Shown here in pieces: positions 3,448 to 45,348 of a stretch of DNA of 64,000 bases. The notes beneath the pieces were generated by a model. The model worked only from the letters and a program-made list of their open reading frames with translations. It made no database searches and was not told where the DNA came from. Position 1 is the first letter of the stretch; each line of letters opens with the position of its first letter. The translations under genes were made by a program, and so were the position numbers. Origin of the DNA: Callorhinchus milii (Eukaryota); contig NW_024704760.1 in the NCBI RefSeq assembly GCF_018977255.1, positions 5,890,001 through 5,954,000 of the forward strand. Reading direction: 5' to 3'.

Positions 3448-6400
3448 CTATGCCGGGGAGACTTGACTCGTTGATACGGAAGAAACCTCTGTCTTGCTTT
3501 GAGATGTTACTGATGAAGAATCATCATCTCCAAACGGATTCTTGCCGCAGCACACTGTGGTGATCATACTGCTACGGAACTGAAAGCAAAGTTTCCACAA
3601 GGCAATTCAGATAGATATTCTTGTGCATCAAAACAACTCTTTTTAAGTGAATTTAAAGCTGAACCATTCACAATTTCAAAACATTATATTTGGGTGGGTC
3701 TGAAGAGTATTTCTCCCGGACCACAAGCCTTGGATCTTATATTGGTGTAAAAAATGGTATCCCACAGGAATTTCTGTTCCAATTTTGGGAAAATAAAAAA
3801 GTGATTTGTATACAAGCGTGAGAAAGAATGTTTTCACGCAATTTCTACACAAATATGCAGCAAAATAAAAAAAATTCTCAAATCTCAAATGTAAAAAGAA
3901 ATTTGGAGGCACTTGAATTGTATTTGTTGCTATTATCTGCACATTTATACGTGTAAAATGTCTGCAAACATGTTGTGCATTCTTGAATCATGATTGCAGA
4001 AACTGAATCACTAGATGTACGTGTATGTCTGTGCACTGCGGCTAAGCTAAAAGCATTTCAAGCACTATCCTTATTGAAACCAGTTCAACACGTTTTTAAT
4101 ATACAGAGGGGAAAAGAGAAATTTGCATTTAATATTTCACTGATTGGTATATTCAACGAGTCATTCTGTAGACTACATTAAATTAGGTATACGGATTTCA
4201 AGCATAATAACCAAACACCCTGCTGGGAAGTGATGATTATTTCGCATAACTATTAATAAATAGTTAATGTTAATTAATGTCAACTATTAATGTTAATTAA
4301 TGAAGAACCTTCCCATCTCATAACAACCACTTTCAAAACCGTGAGAATTTTACATTTGATCTGTTGAAATAAAATATGCAATGGATTATTAACACATTTA
4401 CTTATCATTAATAATAGTCCTTGCATTTGATATAGCACCTTATCACACCATTCAGGTTTCTCAAAGCACTTCCCGGGATATACTGTAAAGTACATTGACT
4501 ATATTTTGTGGGTGAAACGCGGCAGCCAATTGCACACAGCAGTGTCCCACAAACAATTATGGATTGAGTGATCAAATATAGCTTAAAAGAGTTGCAGAAA
4601 GTCAGCAGTGTGTAAAAAAAAGACTAATAACAAACATATTCTTTGACACTGTAAGCTTACAAACGTCAGCAGTGGAATACTGAGGGGAGATTTCCAGTAA
4701 AAAAAAATTGCAAAAAACTTTGTCTTCCCAGGTTTTAGTTTGTTAACTTTGTGATATTTTGTATTATTATTAATATTTTGTATTTGTATTATTGACTTTA
4801 CATTTTGTGGGCAGAATTTGTGAGGTTTAAGGTCTTTCTCTCCAATGAAATAATTAAGGTATTCCATTCTTACCTGCTTGTTCATTAGTATGTAGATGAT
4901 TGGATTGTACAACACAGAACTTTTAGAGAAGAATGAGGGGATAGTCATGAGTAGAGGTGAAATCCATGCCCCTTGATGAGTGAAGATCCAGATTGACAAA
5001 CTGGCATAGGGTAGCCAAGCGGTCAAAAATCCAATGACCATTAGAATGACCATGCGGGTGACTTCTTTCTCTGCCTTCTGGGTGGTTGCAGACTCTTGCT
5101 GCTGCGCTGCGGCCTGAACGAAACAAGTTCCCATGTTATTGCATCTAAACAAAAATGCTCTTAAAATACACCAGCTCATCGAATACATGTTTAAAACTGA
5201 ATAATTGAGTGCATTGTCATAATAATAATAATAATATTATACATTGAATGATGAGGAGGAACAATGCCTATTCAGGCCATATAGTTATTGCACAATAATT
5301 GATTAATACCTATTATTAAGGTTTTCAAGGTTTTGATGAACGCACCATGATTGCACGCTATTTGAAATGGCATGGCTGTCTACCAAAAAATTATGATCTT
5401 ATTTGTTGAAAACTTTGGTGTTTTGTTTCCCCCTCAGCTTTCCTTTAAAGCTTTCATCCAGTCTCTGATCAAGCTCCTCCGAATCTCTTCCACTTGGTTC
5501 TCTCCCTCTATGCTTTCAAAACCCATCTTGTAAAAAAAAATGTTCTCTTTGACTAAGTAAATAAGTGAAAATCATTGCCATGCAAAATAAATAATAACTC
5601 CTGCTTGCAGCCACAGAATCTGCAGGACATGTTAACGGCTTGAGAAATGCGACTTACCTCCTTAACTTTACAGATTAAACGTCCATATGAGAAGAATATG
5701 AGTGTAACTGGAAATGCAAAATGCACGCTAAACAAGTACATAAGGTAAGAGTCATTGTTGTACAGTGGATTCGTGGTGTAGAAATCTGGAGTACATGAAC
5801 ACTGGAATCCTTCTGGGATGAACCTAAAGAGAAAAACAGCTTCTTAAAATATAAAGCGTATCTATTTTGCAGCACAAAATGATCACTTCTAGAAGAGGGT
5901 TACCTCTCATCATCATCATAATCCTTTTATATCACATTGTCTCAAATGAAAGGATTTTGCTGTGAAGTGTAGTAACTGTGTATTTGTAGGGGAACACAGC
6001 AATTTCCAACAAACAGCTACAAAGTGCGTGACTAATTTTATTTGAAGAATCGTTTTCTCAGACTCGGGGAGAACCCACCTTATGTTTTCACAACAGTGTC
6101 AGTCGGATATTTAACATCCACGTGAACAGGCAGGGGAACTCGCTTTAATGTCTCATCCAAAAAGGATGGGATTTCCAACAATTCAGCAACCGTCTGATTT
6201 AGAATGCTTCCAACTGAGCCAGGTTGACACCTAAAGAATTAGCGTGTGATTTGACCACAACCCTCTGGCATAAAGCTAGGCACGTTCACAGTATAAGGTG
6301 CCATTGAGAGAGTCAATAGTCCTTTTTGTGTTGCATATTATTTTATTTGTTTTTGTATCTTGTTTTTCAATTCCTCCACACCAAGTCATCTATTACCAAG

Positions 6401-7882
6401 TTTTCCAATTTGTAGCAATGTGTTCTGTGGCTGGGTGCTCTGAGATAAATGTGCCTTTATTGAAACCTTACTTGAATGTGTGTCTTTTTATAAAGCCTTG
6501 CCCGAAATACTTTGCGGGTTCTTTTATTTGCGGGAGAGTTATTTAAGAAACAAAGTTCAGTTGATACATATATATATACTCTCAATTTTGATTGAGAGCC
6601 ACGACACGCGAGAAGGTAAGGAAGGCAGTACTTCCACACTATTGAGGGGAACCAATTTTGACGTAAAGATCTGCTAATAATAATAATAATCTGTGCGTTT
6701 GATATAGAGCCTTATCACATCGTCGAGACTGTTCAAAGCGCTTCACGGAGTACGTGGTAAAGTGGATCGACTGTACACTTTGTGGGCGAAACACGGCAGC
6801 CAATTGTGCACACCAGCGCCTTATTTTGTATATCCTATTTCATATTTCACAGCTCGAGTGAAATACTTGCCTCGATGGGGATTTGGGTTTTTTGTTTTCT
6901 CACCTGGACCAGCCAACGAGTGGGGGCACTGCAGCCGTTAGAGCCATGAACCACGTGAAGCCCATTCCCATTAGAGCATGAGACGTCCCAAACCTGAAGT
7001 TGCCCATTGGCTTGCATATCACTATGTACCTTTCTATGGCCAAAACCACCAGAGACCAGAGGGCTACCTGGCCTGTAGAGAGACATCAATAACATAAGAG
7101 AGAGGCAAACAGGGAGAAGGGCAAAAAACAATAAAGGAAAACGTTAAGACAGATAACTGTGGAGATCCATTGGTCTTTTATCGGAATAACGTTCTCTCTA
7201 CCGTAATACTTCGCACCAGTTTGAGCTGGCAATCAAAACGTGATACAACAACATTTTTCGATATTTAACAACGCCCAATCTAAACTGGAGTAAATTATTT
7301 AGTTTGTGTTTGGAATATGCAGTCATACATTTCACTGCTCTTTCTTGGCAGTGGAGGGAACCTCAGCTTTTCACAGATGATAATAATCTTTGCATTTGAT
7401 ATACATAGCGCCTGATAAAAGTTCTCAAAGCGCTTCACAAAATACACCGCAAAGCCAATCGACTGCATATTTTGCGGATATATTTCAGACGTGCGCTACG
7501 CATTTTTTTTTTTGCACCTACCTCCCAGCGTTGCGAAGAAACCTTCAAAAATACAGCCGATTGGCCCGAAGATGAAATAACCGTTCATGGTCGTGTAGAA
7601 GCTTAACACGAATCCGAACATGATCATGACCAGGTTGGCAACAGCCAGGTTGACTAGAATGTAATTTAGAGGCTGCCTGAGCTTCTTGTGTTTGACTGTC
7701 ACCAGCAGTGTCAAGCCATTGATTGGTAGCCCAGCACATATGAGAAGGAACATGTAAGCCGAAATCGAGGAGAACAGCCATCGGTCAGCCAAGTAATACT
7801 GCGGGTATTCAAAAGGATTGCGAACTACACCAGTCCTGTTGGACATAGGGATGTAAAAATTACTCCCTTCTGTGCCGTTCAT
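3448..7882 (-). CDS. RH2: RH2 (rhodopsin-like, green/blue-sensitive) cone opsin, 355 aa; coding exons 7882-7522, 7072-6904, 5823-5658, 5113-4874, 3579-3448
   Basis: Starts [32 protein letters not shown]. Has E113, ERY, K296, NPIIY and the C-terminus [12 protein letters not shown]...VSPA*. Exon lengths 361/169/166/240/132 match the RH1/RH2 structure, with GT-AG junctions in phase. Q122, P189 and A264 indicate RH2 rather than RH1. Confidence 0.96.
4408..4575 (-). mobile_element. SINE 3' half in RH2 intron 4. Similar fragments at ~1200-1325, 6676-6822, 7379-7480, 8325-8478, 11062-11186, 13625-13740, 14066-14235, 21525-21745, 34196-34372, 37085-37195, 37504-37680, 41101-41295, 44512-44650, 45910-46027, 46985-47115, 57520-57680
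   Basis: Recurrent TGTGAAGCGCTTTGAGACGTCTC...ATAAGGCGCTATATCAAATGCAAGGA(TTA)n block on either strand; boundaries approximate. Confidence 0.85.
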
Positions 7883-8003: not shown

Positions 8004-8098
8004 GGATTAGTTTTATACCCTTTTTTTTTAAGCAGCGCCGTGGATTAGGGGCAAGGGCAAAAAGCTTTAAAGGAATTGCCAATCTAAGTACGATTAAG
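8004..8098 (-). promoter_or_regulatory. RH2 proximal promoter: TATA box plus CRX/OTX-type sites
   Basis: On the minus strand: TATAAAA at 8011-8017, TAATCC at 8004-8009 and 8042-8047, and TAATC near 8092-8097. These lie about 120-215 bp upstream of the opsin ATG. Confidence 0.7.
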
Positions 8099-9307: not shown

Positions 9308-9624
9308 AATTTATACACAGTACATTCTGATAGAATAATAATTTATACGCAGTACATTCTGATAGAATAATAATTTATACGCAGTACATTCTGATAGAAT
9401 AATAATTTATACGCAGTACATTCTGATAGAATAATAATTTAAACGCAGTACATTCTGATAGAATAATAATTTATACGCAGTACATTCTGATAGAATAATA
9501 ATTTAAATGCAGTACATTCTGATAGAATAATAATTTAAACGCAGTACATTCTGATAGAATAATAATTTATACGCAGTACATTCTGATAGAATAATAATTT
9601 ATACACAGTGCATTCTGATAGAAT
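9308..9624. repeat. Minisatellite, ~10 copies of a 32-bp unit (AATTTATACGCAGTACATTCTGATAGAATAAT)
   Basis: Head-to-tail near-identical units with a few variant positions and no spacers. Confidence 0.95.
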
Positions 9625-20395: not shown

Positions 20396-28570
<8,175 letters not shown>

Positions 28571-36455: not shown

Positions 36456-36747
36456 AACCACTATCTCGCCCTCCAGCACAGGAAGTCATCATTTGAGCAG
36501 TTTTAGCCGACTGGAGTTACCAATTCATTAACTTTACCTTGAATATTATTGATAAATGCATGGCTAAAAAAAGGGATGCAACTTCTTCTTGAGCTAAAGG
36601 GTTTCTGTCTTCCAGGCCATCAAATCTAAAAGGACATTTTCTGTAACCTGAACCTGAAAAGTCTCTGCCACTTTTGGCGTAGCTGGGAAGATATGTAAAC
36701 TCCAAGAGACTTGATCAGTAACTCGATTTGGCGATAAACATTTGAGA

Positions 36748-39700
36748 ATGTACTTGCTGGATAGTGTGGAGATGACTGACCCACAGAAGAGGATTCTTGA
36801 ACCTTTCGTACATCAGGTCGGTGGGCACACCAGCATGATGAAATATGATGACACCACCATCTGCAAACCTCTCATCTCCCAGGAACAATTGTTCTATGAG
36901 TCCCTGCCTCAGGAAATGAAACCATTCACTCCTCAGTATAAAGGTACGGTGCTTAACAATACGCTGAACACTCTCCTGTTCAGACTTTTTTTTCATTTCC
37001 AGTGGAAAATTCTGGCTGTTGGCAAAATAATTTCAGAATATTTTAATATAAAATGTCATATTGTCATATTTTATTAAGATGTGCCAAATTATCCACTTTA
37101 GAATATATTCTATGAAGTGCTTTGAGACGTCTCGACGATATGATAAGGCTCTATACTAAATGCAAGGATTATTATTATTATTATTGATGCACAGTAAATT
37201 GCATCATCTTTACCTATGATGGTGCCATTTTTCAGGAATGCATTTAGAACAAAAATTGAAAGTAGAAGGAAGGTTATGTCTGCAAAATATGAAACAGAAA
37301 TGCTGCCCATATCTTTTGTAATAGTCCCAAAATTCCTTACGGAAATCGCTCCGTACAGAGTGATGTAGTACTCCAAGCAAAGTCATAACTTAAGCATGTA
37401 TTGGAACGGGATGATAGCAACTACACTGCTACTACCCCACTGAGTGTTCAGTACTCGGTACATTATGATGGGAGACAGATAGTATAAGGATTTTAAAGTG
37501 CGAATAATAATAATAATCCTTGCATTTGATATAGCGCTTTTCACGTCTTCTCAACATCTCAAAGCACTCCACAGAATAGACTGTAAAGTGAATTGACCGT
37601 ATACTTGTGGACAAAACGCGGCAGCCAATTGCGCACAGCGGCGTTCCCACAAACAGTCGTGGATTGAAAATGACCAATTGTTTTGGAGGGACAATTTTCA
37701 TAAGCGAGATTGCACTCTTTCAAATGTGTAAAATACATGTTTGTATTTGCAACGACAACTACTACAACAAATTACGTTTGTATAGCATCTTTCACGTTGA
37801 GATGACGTCCCAAGGCGCTGAATTTACGTTCCTTTAGACTTGTGCCATTATCTTTGATCTAACAATGATGATTATTTTAGCCTTATAGGGTAAACTTCAT
37901 GATGCAAAGTGATAATTGAACATTTCTGCTGCAAAGACAAGAGAAATTACTGCTCGTGACAAAGAGCATTTTAAAAAAAACTCAACACATCATAGCTTCA
38001 GCGTTTGGTTATGAACTACTTGTATAATAGAGTCACATGCGTGGCACAAAGGGATGAAAGGGATATTGAATGCAGAGCCAGTGCATAAGCAAATGTGCCT
38101 GTGCACAAGTTTAAATGGTTCGGTCCTTCAAGTGCCTATGAAAAATTATCTGCATTATTACCTTCCGCTCACTGTTTTTTGATAGGAGGATCATGTACCT
38201 GCAGAGGTATCTTTGCTTTCTGTGTAATGTGTGCAGGTAAAATAATTCACAGATATCATATAGAAGTTATCTTCTGCATTAATTATGTGTGGGTATACAC
38301 ATTTCAAGCAGCAGAGGTTGTCTGTATGCAAACTATGCAACTCGTCTAGCAACAAACATGAAGGTCATAATTTGCATTAAAATGCTTTGTACAGAAGTCC
38401 AACTGAATGACTGACGAGACACAAATAGCCTGTAATTGGATTGTACAGGTTGAGTGAAAAGCCAAAGGAGATGTCCTTTTGAACTAGGAGTTTGCAGCAA
38501 TTGAAAATGAATTACAGTGTCGTGGAGCCTTTATAGCAGCGATAAAAGTAGTAAGATAAATGGTGCATTGTTCAGTTATGCAGATATATGTCTGGCCAAG
38601 AAAATTGTCCCATGACTGTAACCCTGATATCTAAGATATTTGCTTATATAATTTAACCCTCTGTAAAATAGCTATTCACCTCTGCACACATACACGCAGC
38701 ATAAATTTAGCTGTCTATGTACTGTAATGTTTGGAAATTAGTTGCCAACGAATTTTAGCTTTAGTGTGTTTATATTGGATAGAGCCAAGACTTTTTTTGA
38801 TAAGAGATAAAAGGTGACATAGATGTTTATTTTTGACGACGTGAAAATCTCAAGGGCATTCTCACTCCTCGCCCTAAATTTAGAAGGAATGTGCTTCAAG
38901 CGGAGAAATAACAGTCTAATAATAACCACTTGGGAACAATGGCCTTTATGCTTGAAAAATAACGGATATTTAAAGAAACGGAATATAAAGTGTTATACAC
39001 CTTATCTAGTAATTTTACGAATATTGTCTCCTCTCTCCCCTTTAAGTTTCTCAAGGCCCAGCTGTCACTGCTGACTATTGTGAGGTCAGGAAGCTAATCT
39101 GTTCCCAGGTTTATGTCAGTGCTGCTGCTGGTATGAAGCAAACGAGAGTTATTTGAATGACTCATCCTCTCAAGTTTCCTTCCCTTGTGTGGAGGAGTTC
39201 CTCGCTTCTCTGTTACTTCTTCCCTGATGAAATGGGACGTCCTCCTGACGTGAAAGCGTGGCATGAGTGGAATATATGTTGCGGTTGTTGTTGCACGCGT
39301 GTGATCAAATAATCAAAAGACTCGCCGTGCCACCGATATTATGCTCTTAAAGACTTTTACAGCTTTTGCAGATTAAAAAAAACATTTGAAAGACACTGCT
39401 GCTCTTTACACGGTTTTCAACTCAGGTTTGGAGGAGAGGGGCAAAATACAGGGGGACTGAGAGAGATCTCAAAGTGGCAGCTCCCAGTAGGAAGAACAAC
39501 AACAACAACAACTTGCCTTTATATAGTGCCCCTCATGCAGGGTAGATTCTCAGAGCACTTATGGAAGCACCTGAACGTCATGCTGCATAAAGGAATTATG
39601 CATGATATATGGTGAGAACTTCACTAAAATCAATTGAATGACCACATTTTATTTGAGGGGTTAACACCCTCTGCCAATGGACTAACGACCTGGTCCCTAC

Positions 39701-42700
39701 TTACTACGAGGTAAACAGAAGCGTGTTTGAGTAAGGAAACTTGCCTAAGGTTTCATCCCGCCTGGAAATCGAACCCGAACCCACTCGCTTGCGAGGCGAG
39801 CGTGATAACCAATATGCTACAGGACTCCTAACTCAGGTTTGAAAGAGGACTTCTGTAGGCTAAGGAACATTATTTTTTTACTGCTGGTGGTAATAGGACT
39901 GACCCCATAAAATGTATTTTTGTACTATCATTGTGTAACCTGACCATCAGCACTGGCCCACGTACTGTGGAAAGCTCTGAACTTTTATGGCATCATTCTG
40001 CACTTAGCAATGCTTACTTTTCCTGGTCATTTGTGCTGTCTCTTAATCATGCAATGCACAACCAGACCACGTGTCGACACAGCGCTTTTCAGCATCTCAT
40101 TCATCAACGCCATTTATGTTTAACAAGCAGCTAATTTCAGCCCTGCTAATGGGTGCACTCAAATATCACCCTCCATCGTACAATTGTAGTGCCAGTGGTG
40201 CCTCGCTGTGTTTCAAGTCTTTCTCGTGAGCGAAACACATTCAGTCACATATGCTCTCGTGCAGCGCTTTAGTTTACTACGTAAACCTGGGCCATTTTGT
40301 GATCAATTGGAAACAAGTTTAAAATTCCCAAACTGTCGCGTTTTCTGGAACTTTGGTACTTTGCTGTTTAAATATGGAAGAAGTTTTTCAAAGTAGTTCT
40401 CGCTCCAAAATTGCTGATTCCATCAGAAGATGAGACTGAATGAAAAGTAGCAGTGTGTGTTGTTCAGTGTTGCTTCACAAACCCACAAAATACATAATCA
40501 CTCACTCCCCTTTCCAATATATTCTGTGAAGAGCTTCGAGACATCTCAATGAGGCGCTATAATCAAATGCAAGGATTATTATTATTTTTATTATTATTAT
40601 TACATTTGGCTGGTACTGCTGGCAGAAAGACATTTCGTGGTACCTAAATGAGTTTTAACTTGGCGAATTGAATTGTCTGTCGTGACGCGATGGACTGCTT
40701 TGCCGTTTCAGGGACCATTTCAGTCTGTCTTGAGAAGGACAGCAGCGGCCAGCTGAGTTTGGTGGCTTGTCCTCAAGCCCAAAAGATCAGCGGCGCAGAG
40801 AAAGGAGGACCTGAGGCTCCGGCAATGGCAAAACGGAAGCACAAGCGAGGAAGCCAGCGTGTAATGGGCAGCAGTGATCACAGTGCTGGTATCATCGAGA
40901 GCTCCCAGCTGGAGGGAAGCAGCCATGACAGGTAATCCTCGCTTTGCTTTCTCCTGCAGCACAGTCCAATGCTTCCTTCCCAGTTCCATCAAAGGCAGGT
41001 TGAGGTTAATTTCGGCCAATACTTTTTCTCTTAAGTGCTCGTCTTTAACTCAAAGCAGACTGCGTGGTAATAATTCCCTTTCTCCCCTGCGGATAAATCA
41101 ATAATAATAATAATAATCTGCGATTCGATACAGCACCTTGTCATGTCGTCGAGACGTCTCAAGGCGCTTCACAATACATACTGTGAAGAAGATTGACTAT
41201 ATATATATGTATATATATTGTGGGCGAAACGCGGCAGCCGATTGCGCACGGCAGCGCCCCACAGACAGCCGTGGATTGAGTGACCCAATTATTATTTGCT
41301 TGTTTGTTTATTTGTTTGTTTTTCAAATCGAGCTTGGACTAAAAAAATATTAGTCATATGAAAATTCTGTCACGGGTTCTGTAAACAGGAAGCACAAGCC
41401 AGTGTGGAATGGGCGGCAGTGGCTACAATGATGGCATCAAGTGCTCTGGGATGCTACCCTGCATGAGGGGGGGTGGGTCTATATAAATGCAAGTTGTTGT
41501 TGTATCATCATTGACAGCCCCTTACTGGAGGGTTCAGCAATGCCAAACTCTCTCATGACATGACCTGCAATGCATTGGGAAGCTAAGGATAAGGCGGGTT
41601 ATTATTTCGGGCTGTTTTGATGCCACAAATATATATTCTAAATGTACTTGGAATGTCACAGCAGCTACACTTCCTCCAGGGCTCTGAGGTTGGCCGTGAG
41701 AATCTGTTCCGGCAATCTGTTTCAGATGATGGACGGAAACCAGGGCTCCAACTCAGAGAAAAACTGCTTCAACCCTTGGAGTCTGCAATGTCACAGGGAG
41801 CAGCTCAGCCGCATGTGCTCGGAGTCCAAGGAGAAGAAATTATACAGTATCCTCTCGCTACCTGAAGGGCGCTGTATAAATAAATGCAAGTTGTTGTTGT
41901 TGTTGCTTTACACACCTGATCACACAGCGATATATTCCAATGTTATAGCAAACACCATTCCTAGAGCAGCAATGGTGAATTATAACAATAATTTTTACAT
42001 TCGAAATGCAAGTAGTTCCTTCTCAAATCCTTAAAAAGTCTCAAAGTGCTTTACGGGATTTACTGTATAGATTTACTGTCTTGTTTAAAAATTATTCCCT
42101 CTTTTTACCTTTTTTCCCAAAACACAGTCAATCCACTTTACAGTATATTCTGTGAATAGTGTTGAGACGTCTCAATGACACGATATTAATCCAAAAAATA
42201 ACCCTTGCAATTGATATAAGTGCTCTGAGAGCCTGTCCTGTGCTTCACAGAATATGCTGTAAAGTGTAGTGACTGTGTCTTTTGTGAGCAATAAGGCACT
42301 CTATCAAATGCAAGGATTATGATTATTAGACTTTTTTAAAAAAACTTCTTCTGCTTGTTTAATCGCATCTTCTGCTTGTTTAATGACGTGCGATATTTGC
42401 AGTAGTGATGTTTCGTCTCCACTGGAGGACGCTATTTTGAGTGGTTCACATTATAACAAACCATGCATTTTTTTTTACACACACCCATGATCGCTTTGGA
42501 TTAAAACTTTATTGCAGTTCATAAATGTGTAATCTGTAACTTCGTCTGTAATGTTCGTTTTCATCGTTCTGTTTTGTGAAAAAAATATAATCCAAAAAAT
42601 AGATTTTTTGGAATATCTTTGAAATTTCATGTAGTTGTTCAGAGTCCGAACGTAAAAAGTTATTTCGAAAGCAATTGCTGCCAACATCAGAATAATTAGT

Positions 42701-45348
42701 GTGTTAAAGATTTGAAAAGTTATTTTTATTCAGTTCCTTGTGCAGAATACTGAAAAGCAAATTAATTAATTTCTGATTTGGAAAAAACGGTCAACAGACT
42801 AGATTAAGTTGATGCTTTGCCAGTAGATTGAAATGATATAAGAGACACACTACACGATGTACACGATGTGGAGTCCTGTAGCTCAGTGGTTAGAGCACTC
42901 GCTTTGCAAGTGAGAGACCTGAGTTCAATTCCAGGCAGAGGGCGAAACCTTGGGCAAGTTTCCTTACTCCACACAGAGCCTAATAATAATCCTCCAAAAC
43001 CCAAAACAATAATTAAATTGGTCATTTTCAATCTACGACTGTTTGTGGGACATTGCTGTGCGCAATTGGCTGCCGCATTCGCCCACAAATATACAGTCAA
43101 TTCACTTTACAGTGTGTTCTGTGAAGCACTTTGGGACGTCCTCCCGACGTGAAAAGCGCTATATCAAATGCAAGGATTATTATTATTATTACAACGTATG
43201 TTATGTCTCATATAAACCAGCCACATATTATTACCTTTGTATGTCTTATATTTCAACAAGCCTGAAGAGAAATGTAATGATTCTACATCATCTGAGCAAG
43301 TCTGCATCGTGCCAAAAAAAGCCCAACATGCTTTCAGCCACTACAACAAGAACAACAACAACTACACCCCCAAACTCTATCCCTCTGTCCCTCCGTCTTG
43401 CTCCTTCAGGTCGAGCCCGAACCTTCCTATTCGACCGTGCCTACCAGTCACCCCCTCCCACCTCCCAGCTCGGAGTCGTGATCTGCCACTGTCCAGCGCT
43501 CTGGGACTCTGCCTTTCATGAAACATTGCAACTTGTTGTTGTTGTCGTTGTTAAATGAACCTATTGGAGTATCAAAATAGAAAATGTTCGCATGTATCTT
43601 GTTCCAAAAAAGAACTCTTGTTTTCCTTAACACTGAAATCAGGATTTCTCTTACTGGAAAATGTCGTGTCGCAGTTCAAATGTCCCAGCATCCTGGATTT
43701 AAAGATGGGCACCAGACAACATGGGGACGATGCCTCAGAGGAGAAGAAAGCCCGACACATACAGAAGTGTGAGCAAAGCACCTCGGCATCACTGGGAGTC
43801 CGCATCTGTGGAATGCAGGTAACTGATCACAGACCTATTTATTTACATCTTTTGCCAATTACAGATAAGAGCGCAAGAAATGCTTAACGAAAAAAGACCA
43901 ACCCAGGTCGCCTTCCACCTTCCTCGCGGTCGCACGCATGTATTGTATTGTCCGGATCTACCCATGTACTGTTTCCCATAATGTTATTTCCTAAAAGAAA
44001 ACTATCTAATCTGTGTTTGAAGGAATCAACATTTCTTGCTTCAGGCGTCTCCCTAGGGAGCCTTTTCCACAGGTCCAGTTGATGGATATTTTTTTTCGGT
44101 AATGTGGTGCTCACTCACTTCTGCGCTAAAGTGTCACCGTATGTTAGCAACTCAATTGCCAAAGTAGGGCTTCAACCCGCGGCTTTCTGACATGGAGACG
44201 AGAGTGCTACCAACTGAAAGGGGCTGAAATGTTGCATGTATTGCATCCGTGTAACGTGACAGCATGGTAATGGGTCATTCGGCCCAACTGGTCCGTGCTG
44301 GTGTTGTGTTTATTCTTCACGCGAGTCCCCACCCCTCTTATTCCCATCTCCTCTATTCCCTTCTCCTTCATGAATGCACTAAATGTCCTTTTATTTATGC
44401 GGATGGTTTCTGCTTCAACCCATATTGATTGATAACTATGCATAACTGTGTGCATTTGTTAACACTGAACAGTTAATGACAAACAGCAATGTGCCTACAA
44501 TAGCACTTTGGAATAATAATAATAATAATCCTTGCCTTGATATAGTGCTTTATCATGTCTTCAAGGCGTCTCAAAGCGCTTCACAGAATATACTGTAAAG
44601 TGAATTGACTGTATATTTTATGAGCGAAAAGTGGCAGCCAGTTGCCCACTGTTTTTATGCCACTGTCTGTTTATATTGGCTTTATAAATGTAGCCCAGAA
44701 GCACATTATGCAGCATTATTTGGATCCAGCTGTAGATAAAATTACAACCATCATATTTATTGCGCTGCATATATCTCTAGAGTGGAAAAACTTTACGTTT
44801 AAAAAATTAAAGGATCAATTTTATAATTTACTTTATTTCAGATTTACCAGCCTGAGAGCGGTCACTTCCTGTGTCGGAACAAGTATTATGGACGATCTCT
44901 TTCGACTGAAGGTTTCAAACAGTCCCTTTACCAGTTTCTACACAACGGCACGTACCTCAGGAAGGACTTGATCGAGCCTGTTCTACTTCGACTCAAAGCT
45001 CTCAAGGCAGTGATAGAGAAGCAGAGCTCCTATAGATTCTACTCCAGTTCACTTCTTATCATTTATGACGGAAAAGAGATGAAAGCAGAACAGAAAAGGA
45101 ACAGTGCGGAGATCCAAATGCACAAACTTTCGTGCAATAACTGTAACTGTAATCTCTTTTCCGACGTCTCCCCACAGCCTGGAAATGGTTCAGCCAAGAT
45201 TGAGGTTCATATGATAGATTTCGCTCACACGACATACAAGGATTTCCAGTCTTACCAGGGCACTCACGACGGACCCGATAAAGGTTATATCTTTGGCCTG
45301 GATAATCTAATTCAAATTCTTCAGACGTTAAGGGATGAAACCGAATAA
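36748..45348 (+). CDS. IP6K3: Inositol hexakisphosphate kinase 3, ~421 aa; coding exons 36748-36943, 40712-40931, 41680-41846 (in-frame alternative acceptors 41662/41665), 43643-43818, 44842-45348
   Basis: Contains [26 protein letters not shown], the PxxxDxKxG motif ([25 protein letters not shown]), [10 protein letters not shown] and MIDFAH. Splice phases are consistent. The position downstream of LEMD2 matches IP6K3 synteny. Confidence 0.92.
39655..39828 (-). mobile_element. SINE 5' half (tRNA head)
   Basis: Reverse complement of GGAGTCCTGTAGC...CTCGCCTCGCAAGCGAG...GGCAAGTTTCCTTACTC. Confidence 0.75.
42869..43190 (+). mobile_element. Young full-length tRNA-headed SINE inside the IP6K3 U12 intron
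   Basis: Near-identical to 19853-20181, including the shortened middle region and the GGGACGTCCTCCCGACGTGAAAAG tail. Confidence 0.9.
43362..43552 (+). mobile_element. L2 LINE 3' fragment
   Basis: [12 protein letters not shown]...TFLFDRAY followed by a (GTT)n tail. Confidence 0.65.
43870..44085 (-). mobile_element. CR1-like LINE 3' fragment
   Basis: The minus-strand translation [25 protein letters not shown] resembles a CR1 ORF2 end. Confidence 0.6.
44255..44420 (-). mobile_element. Degenerate CR1-type 3' end, also present at ~538-650
   Basis: Contains CATTCGGCCC (reverse complement of the CR1 tail GGGCCGAATG) and shares CACCCCTCTT-A-TTCCC-TCTCC with 595-620. Confidence 0.5.

Follow-up and report, generated by a model that had tools for sequence, protein, structure and literature searches.

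The RH2 locus of the elephant shark

The window, by which we mean the whole 64,000-nucleotide stretch of Callorhinchus milii DNA that was analysed, contains the only RH2 cone opsin gene of the elephant shark. The gene is intact and occupies five exons on the minus strand, and the features of the locus are as follows.

3448..3579, minus strand: RH2 opsin exon 5, coding portion up to the TAG stop, placed by frame and splice ends
4874..5113, minus strand: RH2 opsin exon 4, with W265, Y268, S272, S292, S295, K296 and NPIIY
5658..5823, minus strand: RH2 opsin exon 3, AG/GT ends, extracellular loop 2 and helix 5, with F178, E181, C187, T188, P189, F191, L207 and H211
5781..5783, minus strand: codon TTC for Phe191, where 181 of 182 relatives have Tyr
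5790..5792, minus strand: codon ACT for Thr188, where 181 of 182 relatives have Gly
5820..5822, minus strand: codon TTC for Phe178, where 174 of 182 relatives have Tyr
6904..7072, minus strand: RH2 opsin exon 2, AG/GT ends, with Q122, ERY at 134-136 and A167; the joined protein equals NP_001279976.1
7522..7882, minus strand: RH2 opsin exon 1, ATG at 7882 and GT donor, Met1 to codon 121, with N83, S94 and E113; 100% match to NP_001279976.1
8005..8096, minus strand: likely proximal promoter, from a motif scan only, with TATAAA at 8017 and TAATC at 8096, 8047 and 8009
9308-9624: 32-bp tandem array of 9.9 copies with 96% matches, 1.4 kb upstream of the RH2 start
20567-21391, plus strand: exon 1 of a gene with a LEM domain (Pfam LEM, E 3.6e-14)
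about 36700-45345, plus strand: exons of an inositol polyphosphate kinase gene (Pfam IPK on the last exon, E 7e-37)

We take the TAATC motifs upstream of RH2 to be candidate CRX-type sites. The neighbours of the opsin gene in the window are a LEM-domain gene, presumably LEMD2-like, and an IPK gene, presumably IP6K3-like; our search found no published RH2 synteny with which to compare this arrangement. Just left of the window, at locus L014, a frame at about 7067-7700 (plus strand) has a C2CH pattern that we take to be THAP zinc finger-like. A motif scan for a motilin-like motif found none.

The RH2 frame is open over 355 residues with canonical AG/GT splice ends. The joined protein was identical to C. 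milii NP_001279976.1, a record that is not independent of the window assembly. When the protein was compared with ABU84866.1, which we assume to be a retinal cDNA, 354 of 355 residues were identical; E5K was the sole difference, and Thr188, Phe178 and Phe191 were equal in both. Exon 3 is present as a single copy in the genome assembly, and a separate RH1 of the same genome (locus L002, contig C12) reads CSCGVDYY, that is, G188.

The protein matched Pfam 7tm_1 and Rhodopsin_N. It has the hallmarks K296, E113, E181, C110-C187, ERY and NPxxY, and it keeps the cone-type residues Q122, P189 and S295. Its predicted structure (mean pLDDT 78.8) was best matched by dark-state bovine rhodopsin, with residues 187-189 in the plug strand. 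In a tree of 39 selected rows the window RH2 was sister to four elasmobranch RH2 proteins (support 95/88) within an RH2 clade (93/85, unstarred), apart from RH1, SWS, LWS and pinopsin. The branch leading to it measured 0.30 changes per site; from the same node, the elasmobranch RH2 branches measured 0.16-0.24. The sister group (Heterodontus, Carcharhinus, Hypanus and Mobula) is 75-77% identical to it and shares P189 and the S/C loop at 186-187. Unlike the window RH2, however, the proteins of Heterodontus, Carcharhinus and Hypanus have G188, Y178 and Y191 together with A292, and that of Mobula has G188, Y178 and Y191.

The gene, sequence, retinal expression and spectrum of elephant shark RH2 have already been published; PMC11886822 gives the retinal expression with reference to Davies et al. 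2009. The sequencing-run contigs that we examined, including those marked as possible RNA, were unspliced through the RH2 introns and were uninformative on expression.

Thr188, Phe178 and Phe191 are genuine residues

The first-pass annotation had singled out a threonine at bovine position 188 in exon 3 (codon ACT, 5792-5790), flanked by Phe178 and Phe191. Exon 3 aligned without gaps to residues 178-232 of bovine rhodopsin (1f88), so the bovine numbering of F178, T188 and F191 is correct, and the frame and this alignment place Thr188 as had been proposed. It had also been argued that a change from GGN to ACT takes two substitutions and is a poor candidate for a base-call error. Indeed, any glycine codon requires at least two base changes to become ACT, and from GGT the route passes through Ser or Ala.

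We then compared the assembly with sequencing-run contigs. From 24 listed runs, all from one organism, eight (X1-X8, from three studies) were examined; the contigs of 8/8 spanned codon 188 and showed no alternative letter anywhere in exon 3, with the caveat that rare alleles are lost in contigs and one run is possibly the assembly's own source. Because ABU84866.1 and all eight runs agree, Thr188 is not an error. At the level of contigs this answers the read check that the annotation had called for, and Thr188, Phe178 and Phe191 are real and fixed in the runs examined. That Thr188 stems from misassembly or a miscalled base, or that the gene is a dead copy, can be dismissed with near certainty, given the concordance of the second record and the runs, the open frame, canonical splice ends and single-copy exon 3, and the measurement of a recombinant pigment (PMC5677336).

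The same contigs pointed to purifying selection on RH2 in the living population. Variants across the eight runs fell at 39 intronic places and three coding places, all three synonymous. Non-synonymous base variants numbered 0, against 8.6-9.5 expected at the intron rate, in a test that is crude in that X5-X8 cover exons 1-2 poorly and ABU84866.1 differs by E5K. One low-depth contig had a 1-base deletion at 7802 (depth 3), a likely error.

Thr188 is rare among vertebrate visual pigments

To place the three residues we used 195 proteins from two homologue searches, from which we removed the query, ABU84866.1, a concatenated model and 10 others that were broken or mis-spliced. The remaining 182 RH1/RH2 proteins had an intact loop, 148 with P189 and 34 without it. 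Residue 188 was Gly in 181 and Ala in one (a killifish RH2), and Thr in none. This agrees with the near-invariance of Gly188 that the annotation had stated for visual pigments, and Thr188 is not a common state among these relatives (0/182). F191 was likewise found in 0/182. The annotation was right that both Y178F and Y191F are present in the plug; as an exceptional change, however, Y178F did not hold up, since F178 occurs in 7/182 relatives, including geckos, loosejaw and whale shark RH1, and is merely uncommon.

A motif search of the supplement of PMC13112434, comprising three overlapping RH1/RH2 alignments and ancestral sequences, gave 864 matches to SCGPD, three to SCTPD, three to SCSPD and none to SCAPD. 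All three SCTPD matches were elephant shark RH2 itself. Thr, Ser or Ala versions of the rod motif SCGID/SCGVD were looked for in the same supplement and none was found. One darter RH2 (RH2-1) in it combined F191 with G188, showing that F191 does not require T188. Both of the SCSPD matches that were displayed were king penguin RH2, with Ser188, with ECY replacing ERY and with the K296 region lost to a gap; by appearance this is a decaying gene or a bad model.

The comparison was widened to 146 new representatives at 50% identity, of which 113 could be scored. Thr188 occurred in 16 of the 113; 15 of these had Tyr113 and were 27-31% identical to the query, and one was misaligned. SWS-, LWS- and pinopsin-like rows had Gly188 except for two odd gene models with Arg, in a thin sampling of the non-RH2 cone classes. 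Residue 188 was Glu in VA opsin and Ala in parapinopsin. A check for convergence showed that T188 is absent from the deep-sea RH2 pigments of Maurolicus, Scopelarchus, Aristostomias and Stenobrachius. Within the sets examined, elephant shark RH2 is the sole vertebrate visual pigment with Thr188.

Several further observations concern the same site. The killifish protein with Ala188 is RH2 of Nematolebias whitei, represented by a database protein only, and its cluster-mates from Fundulus and Kryptolebias have Gly. Among other opsin-like exons of the elephant shark genome, L003 (pinopsin-like) and L005 (pinopsin- or parapinopsin-like) had Gly188, and L006, L010, L011 and L013 had Thr188. An exon-3 search, with 3 matches among 4 candidates, yielded no second holocephalan RH2, and Rh2 is described as lost in Chimaera phantasma (PMC12952989). 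We found no discussion of Thr188 in elephant shark RH2 in the literature covered, which largely excludes subscription journals and the 2009 primary description; residue 188 is also absent from the RH2 tuning-site lists in the accessible text of PMC5677336, PMC11886822 and PMC7193153.

A putative blue-tuning cluster in the retinal plug

Elephant shark RH2 absorbs maximally at 442 nm in vitro (PMC5677336, citing Davies et al. 2009), whereas shark RH2 peaks, measured or predicted, lie at 518-528 nm (PMC11886822). The reconstructed ancestral jawed-fish RH2 peaks at 488 nm, and M207L (-7 to -10 nm), A292S (-11 nm) and D83N (-1 nm) are known shifts (PMC7193153). All three changes are present in the window RH2, giving a predicted peak of 466-469 nm, compared with 442 nm measured, and a gap of 24-27 nm. 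The plug residues act in the right direction: G188T in bovine rhodopsin shifts the peak by -12 nm, from 500 nm in wild type to 488 nm (Sakai et al. 2022, PMC8871353), and Y178F in shark RH1 shifts it by -3 nm and lowers thermal stability (PMC10068813). Together they would close 15 nm of the gap, on values that come from rod opsins and with additivity assumed. More generally, all eight non-Cys substitutions at bovine 188 that formed pigment, as well as G188C, shifted the peak by 5-14 nm, with G188A at -6 nm (PMC8871353). A spectral value for Y191F was found neither in the literature covered nor in 12 of 13 VPOD supplement files, which also held no entry for G188 or Y178F.

The published geometry of the pocket suggests how such a cluster could act. 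Residue 188 has been modelled near the retinal C11=C12 bond and Glu181 (PMC8871353). In bovine rhodopsin (1U19) the Tyr191 ring lies 5.2 Å from the Gly188 C-alpha, and Tyr191 packs on Ala272 and joins a hydrogen-bond chain via Glu181 to Glu113 (PMC5025775); these values are from a published 1U19 figure legend and not from the AlphaFold model, which has no retinal. The window RH2 has Ser at 272 where bovine rhodopsin has Ala. The Thr188 side chain may therefore change the local polarity near C11=C12 and Glu181, and loss of the Tyr191 hydroxyl could free the space that it needs and rearrange the hydrogen bonds that link 181, 191 and 268. T188 and F191 would then be coupled, one hydroxyl being gained beside one lost.

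On balance, we favour the reading that Thr188 acts with Phe178 and Phe191 as a blue-tuning cluster within the retinal plug, in a cone pigment that probably still bleaches; Phe191 probably has a share in it. The cluster could account for about half, or more, of the shift not explained by known sites, and an altered balance of meta I, II and III would be a likely side effect. In a lineage in which SWS1 and SWS2 have been lost, as in cartilaginous fishes (PMC11886822), a blue-shifted RH2 may serve to cover blue light.

Other sites could contribute. The window RH2 has further rare residues: S94 (codon 7603-7601, minus strand; Thr in 128 of 148 RH2-like proteins), A167, S272 and V299. T94A shifts whale shark RH1 by -19 nm (PMC10068813), so S94 competes with Thr188 as a tuning site. 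Nor is the plug cluster needed to reach about 440 nm: G188, Y178 and Y191 are all kept in the RH2 of Scopelarchus, which microspectrophotometry puts at 444 nm, and in the RH2 pigments of Maurolicus, whose values of 441 and 435 nm are predictions only (PMC5677336).

Kinetic and near-neutral alternatives

The changes might instead act mainly on how a bleaching pigment divides among meta I, II and III, on its release of retinal or on its thermal noise, rather than on its colour. After ultraviolet irradiation of meta II, bovine G188T yielded 11% dark state, 2.9% meta II and 86.1% meta III, compared with 21.6%, 13.7% and 64.7% in wild type (PMC8871353). In bovine rhodopsin, Y191F displaces meta I in the direction of meta IIb, and mutation of Tyr191 lowers transducin activation (PMC5025775); the reduced thermal stability of shark RH1 with Y178F points the same way. 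The annotation's suggestion of altered meta II behaviour is plausible to this extent, as G188T alters the photoproduct mix and Y191F moves the meta I/II equilibrium forward. On the other hand, Y178F leaves that equilibrium unchanged (PMC5025775), and the large unexplained blue shift is matched by G188T in both sign and size. We consider it unlikely that kinetics or stability is the main effect, and such an effect is in any case compatible with blue tuning.

A further possibility is that the changes are near-neutral or compensatory, the product of drift on a long lone branch, with little effect on colour or kinetics. The length of the branch (0.30 compared with 0.16-0.24), rare residues at 18 conserved RH2 columns, the loss of Rh2 in Chimaera phantasma and the killifish A188 with G188 in its two close relatives are all in keeping with this idea. 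However, two successive changes would have had to occur at a site that is Gly in 181/182 relatives, every pigment-forming substitution at bovine 188 moved the peak, and non-synonymous base variants were absent from the eight runs. We regard drift without functional consequence as improbable.

Thr188 and photoregeneration

We finally considered whether Thr188 restores an ancestral bistable trait, such that the cone pigment partly photoregenerates or recovers by itself, as the annotation had proposed. Its comparison of residue 188 across opsins (Thr in Opn5m, Cys in Opn5L1 and a photocyclic G188C rhodopsin) is in accord with PMC8871353, PMC12579811 and PMC8766551. Thr or Ser is found at 188 in most bistable opsins, and Gly188 has been proposed to arise with monostable pigments (PMC8871353). 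In Opn5m, Thr188 is required for full bistability, yet T188G still interconverts partly (PMC12579811, PMC8766551). Cys188 is the key to photocycling in Opn5L1, in Opn5m T188C and in a coral opsin, and C188S abolishes recovery in the coral opsin (PMC12579811, PMC8766551, bioRxiv 10.64898/2026.05.24.727572).

The direct precedent speaks against the proposal. Bovine G188T has the same site, fold and substitution as the window RH2, and differs in its rod background (E122, I189). It is blue-shifted and monostable, thermal recovery is absent, and light returns less of it to the dark state than of wild type (11% against 21.6%); only G188C photocycles, via a thiol that Thr lacks, and the authors conclude that G188T or G188S alone does not make a bistable opsin and that further residues are needed (PMC8871353). 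As G188T is monostable and Opn5m T188G partly interconverts, Thr188 does not suffice for bistability and is not strictly required for it. For the same reason the Gly188 of monostable pigments, which the window RH2 lacks, is a correlate rather than a determinant.

The window pigment was also compared with each class of opsin. Its Thr188 is of the Thr/Ser type of Opn5m-like bistable opsins and differs from the Cys188 of photocyclic opsins (Opn5L1, G188C rhodopsin and AtAntho2c). Its E113 departs from the Opn5m-type arrangement, in which residue 113 is not Glu (usually Tyr) and Glu181 is the counterion. Opn5m is a distant family, with Thr188 representatives that have Tyr113 where the window RH2 has Glu113, and Opn5L1 is a photocyclic opsin with Cys188, whereas the window protein has Thr188 and is nested in RH2. 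Parapinopsins carry E113 and are bistable despite it. Ordinary bleaching is favoured because E113, Q122, P189 and S295 are kept and all 15 well-aligned Thr188 opsins have Tyr113; residues 122, 189 and 295 have described roles in bleaching, fast-decay cone pigments (PMC13112434).

The case for a benefit in dim blue light is weak as well, as photoreversal of meta II was driven by UV and needs a second photon within the lifetime of that state. Meta II photoreversal in the bovine work used 360 nm light (PMC8871353), and in ancestral RH2 half of the retinal is released within about 0.5 min (PMC13112434). With an assumed photosensitivity constant, we estimated the odds of a second photon within 10-100 s at 1e-5 to 1e-2 for 1e2-1e4 photons per square micron per second.

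What can be said for photoregeneration is that the published G188T work is limited to a rod opsin, not a cone pigment with F191, and that the window pigment has more plug changes, of the kind of extra residue called for by Sakai et al. In its boldest form, Thr188 with Phe191, Phe178 and Ser272 would supply the residues that bovine G188T lacked, and this would be the first vertebrate visual pigment in nature to have returned to photoreversibility and partial bistability; we give this very little credence. With self-regeneration following Cys188 in four opsins, and Glu113, Gln122 and Pro189 kept, a restored bistable trait is very improbable as a whole.

Significance

A photoreversible pigment would break the monostable rule of vertebrate visual pigments and be of optogenetic interest, an outcome that published G188T makes unlikely. 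If the three residues do form a blue-tuning cluster, position 188, with 191, would be a natural tuning site missing from the RH2 site lists in the text consulted. It would help to account for the peak of an RH2 pigment that is among the bluest and that would fill the blue range in a lineage without short-wave cone opsins. Elephant shark RH2, a working cone pigment back at Thr, is in addition a natural test of the proposed role of Gly188 in the transition from bistable to bleaching pigments.
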